DNA of 64,000 bases from Saccostrea echinata. Its lineage: Eukaryota. The DNA lies in the NCBI RefSeq assembly GCF_033153115.1, contig NW_026889753.1, positions 11,656,001 to 11,720,000 on the forward strand, written 5' to 3'. A program made the translations under genes and the position numbers. Positions 57,890-60,800 of the stretch are shown here, one piece after another; the first letter of the stretch is position 1, and each line of letters starts with the position of its first letter. The notes below the pieces were generated by a model. That model made no database searches and was not told where the DNA came from. It saw only the letters and a program-made list of their open reading frames with translations.

Positions 57890-60800
57890 TTACACAGATT
57901 GTAAGACAGGAGGTTCGTATCCCTCAGGTCGTGCCACGGTCTCGCCGGAGTCTGTGATGACGGTTTTACTGCCGCCCTCTCCATGCAACTCCATCAATTT
58001 ACCGATGTCAAATTTAGGTTTCTTCAGCACTTTAACTTTACGAATGAAAACATCGTGAAGGGGATAAATTCCTTGACAGGCTTTTTCAATGTCCTTACCA
58101 ATGCTGTCTGGAATACTGCAAAAAAGAAAACAGATATTCAAAAACTAGGAATCTCATCTCAACAAAACTTCAAGTAAGGCAAAGTCTCACAAAAAGAATG
58201 GTCAGTAAGATCAATTAATTACAATTAGTTCATTATAAAAGCCCTTTAGTATAAAACGACTTGTGAAGTAAGACACGTAACTTACAATTACTCAAGCAAT
58301 AATCATTTACCATGTGCCTTATAGAGAATTGATGAATTTGATAATTTGACCAATGCACAATTGCATCTAGAGAAAACAAAAATCAAACTTACAGTTTGTT
58401 GACAACTTCTTTCATGTCATTGGATGTCACTTCTTTTGTAATGATGTCAACCATCTTCTTTCTGATGGTCTTCACCTAAAATAGAAACAAAAATACTCAA
58501 TCCTCATTTTAAACTTGTCATTTTTTTTTTAAATTTCCAAGTATGTACCCAAGTATTCAATTGAAATAGCAGAAAACATCTCCTTTCTGCTTTATGTGAC
58601 ACAGAAATAAAGAGCACCTGCAGAGTAAGATACTACTGTCAGGAAAAACAGGTCCTCAGAAATAACCTAAGAGCAATGATAAATCAACTAATATACGTTT
58701 CACAATTCTAGGTCTCACTTAATGATCCAGACAATGGTTAAAGAATTCAAAAATGAGGCTAAAGTGACACACTTCTGAGTTGTGACATAATTCCTCCTGA
58801 TGGTACCAAAATTTCAAAAAGATGTCTACAAAACTACCTTTGGGTTGCGGATTTCACATTCCTCACACATCAGCTGATAAAAAGTTTGATAGTTTTACAA
58901 CTCATTGTGAAAGATTTGACCCAGACATAAAGAAACTGACAGAGGGACAGACAGATGGAAGAGTGGAATGGGAAATGTAGCTTGTCAAAAGCAGAGATGT
59001 GGAAAAATACTAGTTATGCCAGATCACCTAAATTATGTAAAAACTAATAACCAAGCCTGAACCTCCTGTCCAAAGGACCAATAGATTAGTCTTTTCTTCC
59101 AGATTTACATCCAAATTTTGACTGCACAGTCTGCTTAAAACTTTTCCCAGAATGTTGAAATATTTTTCACTAGCTGCATCAATGAGCTACTCTCAGACAA
59201 AGCTGAAACTGTATGTTCATCAACAGAATTATGTCCAGTATATAATGTCATCACTGGTAGCTCCTAGGATAAACTTAATTACTACAATGTAATAATTTTG
59301 TTGACCACCAAAGAAATGTGGTAGGTATACTGTTTGTAAAAAGAAGATAAATAGAATCAAAATATTTCAGTGCCTATACTGGTTAATCACACCATTAACT
59401 CTGTTTATGTAAAAAGTCTATCAAGATGAAAATCTACAGGTAAGTCCAGTCAGAGTACAGATGTATGACAATTTTTTTAAAGAATGGGTACTTCTCAACT
59501 ATTTTTCTCTTTTTATCTCCCACCTTATGTACTCGGCATTACTGACTAAGAAAATGTTGATATTTGTTTGAGCACAGGCTTCACCTTATAAAAAATCTTA
59601 CAGTCTTTCTTTATGCATCCTACATGTGTTGTTCAAAAATATGTTTCAACATAAAACAATTGAGTTATTCATAACTGACCCAATTTCATACCTGTGTGTG
59701 TTGGGCATAGCAAGTCTTCTTCACTTGAAACTGCTTCTTCTTGGTGAAACCAATACAGAACATCCTTAGAAGGTAGCCATCTGTGGTCTTGACATCAACA
59801 TGAGCCTGGATCAAGGTCTGCCACTTCTTTACCATGGAGCAGAGCTTGTCCCTGGTCAGGTCCATGCCATGAAAGTTGGTCAGGACATTACGACCTTGAA
59901 CTTCCTCAGCCATAAGTTTGAACTTCCTGAATGATACTTCGTCATTCTGAAGATCTGCCAGGGAGATTTCAAATACACGCCCCTTTAGGCCATCAGAAGC
60001 AATCCCTGCATAGAAGATCAAAATATCACAAAACATTGCTTACTGCAAGTCATATTAAAATAATGAAAAATGTTTCACATATGCAGTGGGACATTAGCCA
60101 CAATTTATATACTTATTTATAAATAACAACAAAACTAATGTATTCATTAGTAATTTACAGAGCTTTCAAAAAGATACGAAACATGCAGTACTTTTACAAT
60201 AGGAGGTGCTTTCTGAAAGCGATTTTAATTAAATGTTTTATCGAATTTTTCTCTATTGAATATTATGCCAGGAAAAAATCATGATTTTAAAGTAACAGAT
60301 TTTTAAAGGCCTGCATTTGTGTTTAACTGCAGCAAGTCTATAATAAAGTACTTGAACATGAGTTGTTTTATTCATTTTGAAACTAAAGTTGCCAAGCTGA
60401 AAGATAACTTATTGTTTGTGCCTTAATTCCAGAACACTACTTCAATAATGACAATAAACATTAAGTTTATTTATTTGAATGAAATTATTATGCAAAACCA
60501 ATGTTAGATTAACTTATTTGAATGAAATTACTTAGTTAAATTCTCTATTGCGTTTCTTACTATTTTCAATTATGAACAGAAAAGATGTTCTGATTGAATG
60601 ATTGTAAATTTTTACTGATTTTCAAACACTCTTATTGATAGGTGTATGCCTGAAAATACCTTCCGTTGTATTAATCCCAAGATTCCTCTGACTCTAACCC
60701 CTGCTTTAATATTGGGACATGTGAAGGGGAGATGCACAAGCAGAGATTAAAGTCAGAGGAATCTCTGACTCCGGGGCCATAAACTAAGACGAGCTCACTT

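Follow-up and report, generated by a model that had tools for sequence, protein, structure and literature searches.

Intron 3 of the ribosomal protein gene RPS3A (eS1) of the oyster Saccostrea echinata carries, in the sense direction, a box C/D snoRNA sequence with a guide that can base-pair with helix 27 of the 18S rRNA encoded in the same genome. Judged on sequence, it is quite probably a standard intronic C/D methylation guide for 18S A1141, the predicted 2'-O-methylation site that corresponds to yeast Gm1126 and human A1183. At this level the element is real and the mechanism that it would use is an ordinary one. It is likely that some invertebrates have kept an old ribosome mark that the human, mouse, frog and fly maps lack; the animal variant with its compensatory change, and its occurrence in a second lineage, are apparently undescribed.

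Anatomy of the snoRNA and its host gene

The snoRNA sequence occupies 59263-59184 on the minus strand of the window, by which we mean the whole stretch of 64,000 nucleotides that was analysed. In the 923-Mb assembly there is a single copy of the sequence, and its motif of guide plus box D is likewise found once. Window positions of the features are:

57891..61581, minus strand, RPS3A (eS1) coding region, a single locus in the genome
61581-61520, 61159-61056, 60005-59692, 58475-58393 and 58115-57891, minus strand, the five RPS3A coding exons
58476..59691, minus strand, RPS3A intron 3, 1216 nt, GT-AG, with its splice joint in transcript-like contigs
59184..59263, minus strand, snoRNA sequence including the terminal stem, extent predicted from boxes, stem and guide
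59257..59263, minus strand, 5' arm of the 7-bp terminal stem, pairing with 59190-59184
59184..59190, minus strand, 3' arm of the terminal stem, pairing with 59263-59257
59248..59254, minus strand, box C GUGAUGA, K-turn partner of box D
59239..59247, minus strand, 9-nt segment 5' of the candidate box D', with targets no better than chance
59235..59238, minus strand, candidate degenerate box D' CUGG, placed from the spacing to box C'
59217..59223, minus strand, box C' UUGAUGA, near-canonical, U replacing the purine
59198..59210, minus strand, box D guide of 13 nt, complementary to own 18S 1138-1150, U59201 being D-5
59193..59196, minus strand, box D CUGA, K-turn partner of box C

The RUGAUGA and CUGA boxes that define the C/D class are both present and can form a K-turn with the terminal stem. 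The expected pattern (G.A, A.G, U.U, G-C, A-U, with a bulge of 3 nt) is found, as is the C59256-G59192 pair, and the U at D-1 is able to pair with the final A of box C. The C/D anatomy described in the original prediction (boxes, 7-bp stem, 13-nt guide) is borne out, box C' being only near-canonical. Its candidate partner D' is the degenerate CUGG, with targets no better than chance, and the D' side of the snoRNA is likely inactive. Another possible box D', CUGU at 59226-59223, was rejected because it overlaps box C'. The folding energy of the entire snoRNA is unremarkable (z -0.58), as one would expect of a C/D RNA with an open structure, and lends no support. With a looser pattern a second genomic match was found (L140, in G000:C9), with a guide match of 11 nt; it has a box C without preceding purine and no stem, scores 9.4 bits and was rejected.

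All four RPS3A intron joints are seen in transcript-like contigs, that of intron 3 in three of the four runs, and exon 3 displays 99% identity to an Ostrea edulis protein and 97% to Crassostrea, which places the organism among ostreid oysters. The contigs come from long-RNA-type runs; those of X1, X2, X5 and X6 cover the RPS3A exons and not the snoRNA, and in X3-X6 no contig falls on intron 3, gaps that are uninformative on expression. Within intron 3, 437 nt lie between the 5' splice site and box C and 717 nt between box D and the 3' splice site. For mammalian intronic C/D RNAs the optimum is 70-90 nt from the 3' splice site; in the rotifer-like introns presented below this distance is 35-64 nt, compared with 717 nt in the oyster. 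No further snoRNA was found in the RPS3A introns.

Other elements were observed in the window. RPS3A intron 2 contains at 60781-60880 a 40-bp inverted repeat, also present in many unrelated transcript contigs, which looks like a MITE; its plant miRNA matches in Rfam are under cut-off. Just upstream of the RPS3A start, 61910-63288 holds nested long inverted repeats of 461 nt (94%) and 233 nt (96%), likely nested foldback elements. Shortly 5' of the start codon, at about 61607-61593 (minus strand), there is a pyrimidine tract, which fits the motif of a 5' TOP mRNA. Finally, two identical tRNA-like pieces at 6244-6301 and 6510-6567 (plus strand), with GCA at the anticodon position, belong to a 266-nt tandem duplication; they score 39.9 bits with the Rfam tRNA model, are not called by ARAGORN and are likely a tRNA-derived SINE.

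Predicted pairing with helix 27 of the 18S rRNA

C/D antisense elements are stretches of 10-21 nt beside box D or D' that are complementary to rRNA or snRNA of the same organism. Here the guide makes 13 Watson-Crick pairs with own 18S 1138-1150, followed by one G.U at 1137 (D-1). The complementary tract on which the original prediction depended is present in the oyster's own rRNA, in all five rDNA copies examined. Over 18S, ITS1, 5.8S, ITS2, 28S, 1.74 kb 5' of 18S, U2 and U6, the guide matches at this single place, and the duplex is the best one for the entire snoRNA against 16.8 kb of rDNA. Its energy is -19.8 kcal/mol, versus -13.6 +/- 1.4 for shuffled guides, none of which (0/100) was as good. 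D-5 (U59201) faces A1141, right after the GCAA loop; this is the third A that the D+5 rule had been expected to select, and U1136-A1141 closes the loop of helix 27. The human target tract is reported to have the same sequence as that of the oyster, and the conserved GCAA loop is the '900 tetraloop', which belongs to a subunit bridge.

The upstream region was compared with own 18S, 5.8S, 28S, ITS1/2, 1.74 kb 5' of 18S, U2 and U6. The best match in this set is 9 nt including G.U pairs, and 34/100 and 28/100 shuffles were equally good, in agreement with the earlier view that this region has no recognisable target.

One might suppose that boxes and an rRNA-like fragment came together by chance in an AT-rich intron which gives no RNA product. 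A second, stemless match of 11 nt does exist elsewhere in the genome, the folding z is -0.58 and, in the metagenome scan presented below, 33 of the 36 distinct U-type matches listed are stemless, several of those examined lying within bacterial-type ORFs. However, the real window contains 21 box C..box D pairs, and a single one has a guide above 8 nt, the other 20 within these 64 kb having at most 8 nt. Among 2953 pairs in 300 Markov-simulated 64-kb windows, one reached 13 nt and it was stemless; a guide of at least 11 nt with a stem of at least 5 was reproduced in none of the 300. Moreover, the locus combines a sense orientation, an intronic position, a host gene for a ribosomal protein, the geometry of a K-turn and a target site already known to be methylated. 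We consider a chance assembly very improbable.

Methylation of the equivalent site in mapped species

In a published alignment, yeast 18S position 1126 (Gm, guided by snR41) corresponds to human 1183, fly 1214, Arabidopsis 1130 and Dictyostelium 1120. The mark is listed there as yeast-only among the species mapped, without Nm in human, mouse, Xenopus, fly, Arabidopsis or Dictyostelium (PMC11014333 Table S4 row 45). The same row supports the original prediction, which had equated the site with yeast G1126/snR41 and human 1183 and did not count the latter among the mapped human Nm sites. The yeast Gm1126 has been mapped, and deletion of snr41 results in a 20% loss of 18S Gm (PMC4344503).

The site is absent from the zebrafish SNORD lists in 12 of the 17 supplements of PMC7668251. 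The planarian data available from PMC11649923 contain no Nm call near the equivalent site. Position 1123, whose equivalence we infer from a -60 offset, has a 3'-end score of 0.87-0.92 and a 5'-end score of 0.22-0.34 in these data, with no drop on fbl-1 or fbl-2 knockdown; Um1228 falls on fibrillarin knockdown from about 0.91 to 0.49-0.66. The planarian data argue against a mark there, and the mark would therefore not be general in Spiralia. The listings from the literature searches contain neither an animal guide nor an animal Nm at the site, and no Nm map of an oyster. Passages of PMC8817022, PMC6984369, PMC5824354, PMC3511168, PMC7671301, PMC3412847 and PMC2647286 have nothing on it; their supplements could bear on it, as could subscription papers, the nematode catalogue and automated genome annotations.

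These maps bear on a second account, in which an expressed snoRNA would bind helix 27 with little or no methyl transfer, as a pre-18S folding chaperone or a waning relic. None of the animal maps consulted shows methylation at the site (PMC11014333, PMC11649923, PMC7668251), and the fly has predicted guides without detectable Nm (PMC11014333); the 717 nt to the 3' splice site are also unusual. Against this account stand the perfect D+5 register, the intact K-turn and a compensatory change precisely at the methylation-directing base, and the yeast counterpart methylates fully (PMC4344503). We find this account unlikely, and a working methylation guide is the reading that we retain.

Relation to snR41, Afu_455 and RPS3A-hosted snoRNAs

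No snoRNA family matches the window at the Rfam gathering threshold. The Rfam check suggested with the original prediction was run, and no family cut-off was reached: the snR41 model (RF01218) scores 18.2 of 50 bits and the Afu_455 model (RF01860) 17.6 of 48 bits, the latter over model positions 57-92 only. In the local Rfam search both align through the same guide and in the same register. Guide and box D are identical to the Afu_455 consensus at 17 of 18 nt, the sole change being C->U at D-5; with respect to snR41 there are differences at D-5 and within box D. This C->U, at the methylation-directing base of the guide, matches a G->A in the target. Of the two guides of snR41, the one beside box D, which serves the 18S G1126-equivalent, is present with one compensatory change, while the upstream region is without a duplex equivalent to the second guide, for 18S Am541. 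Among the 10 of 19 Rfam matches that were aligned there is no animal family with this guide, and no C. elegans ceN guide matched the snoRNA in the Rfam search.

Vertebrate RPS3A hosts SNORD73. The oyster RNA had been held not to be SNORD73, rightly so: SNORD73 (RF00071) is not among its Rfam matches at E<=10, no 28S duplex is above chance, and the SNORD73 target is a different one, 28S G1747/1760 (PMC11014333). Elsewhere in the genome no SNORD73 exceeds the cut-off, the best of 64 candidates scored reaching 29.1 of 42 bits. Two identical sub-threshold SNORD73-like matches (L132 and L133, in G000:C16 and C28; 28.1 of 42 bits) carry 11 nt complementary to the oyster 18S around position 749. Fly RPS3A hosts snoRNA:CD68, predicted for 18S-Gm475 (PMC11014333 Table S6).

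Guides for the site are documented in other eukaryotes. Neurospora Nc CD9 guides 18S-Gm1122 and equals S. pombe snR41-II; the table of PMC2780460 names no homologue of it in plants or mammals. In Entamoeba, the guide beside box D of Me-Eh-SSU-G1152 addresses the counterpart of yeast G1126 and is given as shared with yeast only (PMC3542256). The 'A1183' that also occurs in the latter paper follows Entamoeba numbering and was rejected as the human-1183 site. Guides in both Neurospora and Entamoeba imply that the guide predates animals, in line with the ancient site originally proposed.

U-type guides in rotifer-like contigs

Metagenomes were scanned for a pattern in which box C is followed, after 25-55 nt, by the guide with either C or U at D-5 and then by box D. 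The scan gave at least 121 loci; the pattern was found again in 120 of those listed, with 101 distinct cores. Among the matches listed, 65 distinct cores are C-type, of which 32 have a stem of at least 5 Watson-Crick pairs, and 1 of 20 C-type loci tested exceeds the Afu_455 cut-off. The other 36 are U-type, and three have a stem of at least 5 (10, 10 and 5 pairs). Among the matches listed, these three stemmed U-type cores, in five loci, are all situated in the last intron of GIPC, which is GT-AG and 123-169 nt long:

L029, 2640-2709, plus strand, C/D snoRNA in a rotifer-like GIPC intron
L031, 564-635, minus strand, the same
L069, 1233-1305, minus strand, the same
L114 and L116, 301-372, minus strand, the same

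The L029 GIPC exon has 95% identity to Rotaria proteins, and the species-named matches are Rotaria, Adineta and Didymodactylos. These genera are bdelloid rotifers. Among molluscs the analysis covered this one oyster genome, and the U-type guide in these contigs indicates a distribution wider than the retention in molluscs of the original prediction; the five loci may come from few samples. The rotifer guide would pair with its own 18S, to judge from the animal sequence. Oyster and rotifer-like RNAs share 19 consecutive invariant columns, which run through the guide and box D and two nucleotides past it, and outside the boxes and guide their alignment is unconvincing; a model made from a poor alignment (R1) served as a rough check only. 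Given this alignment and the Rfam cut-offs missed, it is the guide that carries the case for descent. GIPC is a PDZ gene and its snoRNAs fill most of the intron, the terminal stem starting in four of the five at most 16 nt into it, by the 5' splice site.

By tblastn, 0 of the 121 loci listed from metagenomes are RPS3A-linked, and the viral contig collection gave 0 pattern matches. Seven of 11 U-type loci examined (L008, L009, L018, L022, L062, L064 and L075) were rejected, being stemless and mostly within ORFs. An AT-rich contig carries at L065:75-136 (minus strand) boxes C, C' and D, a U-type guide and a 4-bp stem; its host gene was not found, and it is possibly from another animal or a rotifer paralogue. 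A Pfam scan of 83 of the 119 frames beside the C-type matches listed did not place their lineages, and they are assigned here neither to algae nor to animals. Upstream segments of the C-type guides differ between groups of contigs (L010, L027, L035, L054 and L084; L017, L032, L033, L048, L070 and L082), which suggests that the Gm1126 guide has been combined with several second guides. L032 also carries a U14 gene.

Proposed mechanism and evolution

According to established C/D biology, the snoRNA would be co-transcribed with RPS3A and, once the intron has been spliced out, freed from it by exonucleases that trim the ends. Its K-turn would be bound by Snu13/15.5K, with Nop56, Nop58 and fibrillarin, and the latter would 2'-O-methylate A1141 opposite D-5. 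The comparison suggests that the guide descended from one of the snR41-II type, as present in fungi and amoebae. In animals the closing pair of the helix-27 GCAA loop would have passed from C-G to U-A, and the guide would have followed with one C->U change. It would then have moved between host introns, RPS3A in the oyster and GIPC in bdelloid rotifers; vertebrates and fly, and probably planarian too, would have lost it or would not use it.

We lean slightly towards the following joint reading: spiralians (oysters and bdelloid rotifers) carry Am at the human-1183 position, the equivalent of the fungal and amoebozoan Gm1126, with the pair flipped and the guide matched to it; vertebrates, flies and planarians lost the mark separately, and the guide hopped between hosts. 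If so, the guide tracked the C-G to U-A flip, and it would be the position, not the base, that selection kept. Alternatively, the guides of oyster and rotifers would both direct methylation at the site and would have arisen convergently, not from an snR41-II-type guide. The common parts are indeed limited to boxes and guide, the Rfam scores are far under cut-off, the host genes differ and there are gaps in fly, vertebrates and planarian. Yet fungi, Entamoeba, oyster and rotifer-like contigs have in common the same nucleotide, the same box (D, not D') and the same guide boundaries, and snoRNA host switching is common (PMC3412847). We hold such a convergence to be improbable and favour common descent.

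If the guide is truly present in two distant spiralian lineages, the model animals would be the ones without the mark, and rRNA modification maps of invertebrates could not be deduced from human and fly. The closing base of the helix-27 GCAA loop would also offer a case of three-way covariation, between the two partners of the rRNA pair (C-G to U-A) and the guide (C to U).

Comparison with known systems

The oyster RNA and S. cerevisiae snR41 have the same guide, the same register by box D and the same target position. They differ in that snR41 is longer (a model of 111 positions), also guides Am541 and has C at D-5 and a G target, whereas the oyster RNA is about 80 nt long, single-guide and intronic, with U at D-5 and a predicted A target. 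Neurospora Nc CD9 is intronic and 81 nt long, and its one guide, beside box D, is directed at this same position (PMC2780460); Afu_455, Nc CD9 and S. pombe snR41-II differ in being fungal, with a G target and an unrelated 5' half. Me-Eh-SSU-G1152 of Entamoeba differs in being amoebozoan, intergenic and with a C-type guide (PMC3542256). SNORD73 and fly snoRNA:CD68 share the RPS3A host with the oyster RNA and differ from it in target.
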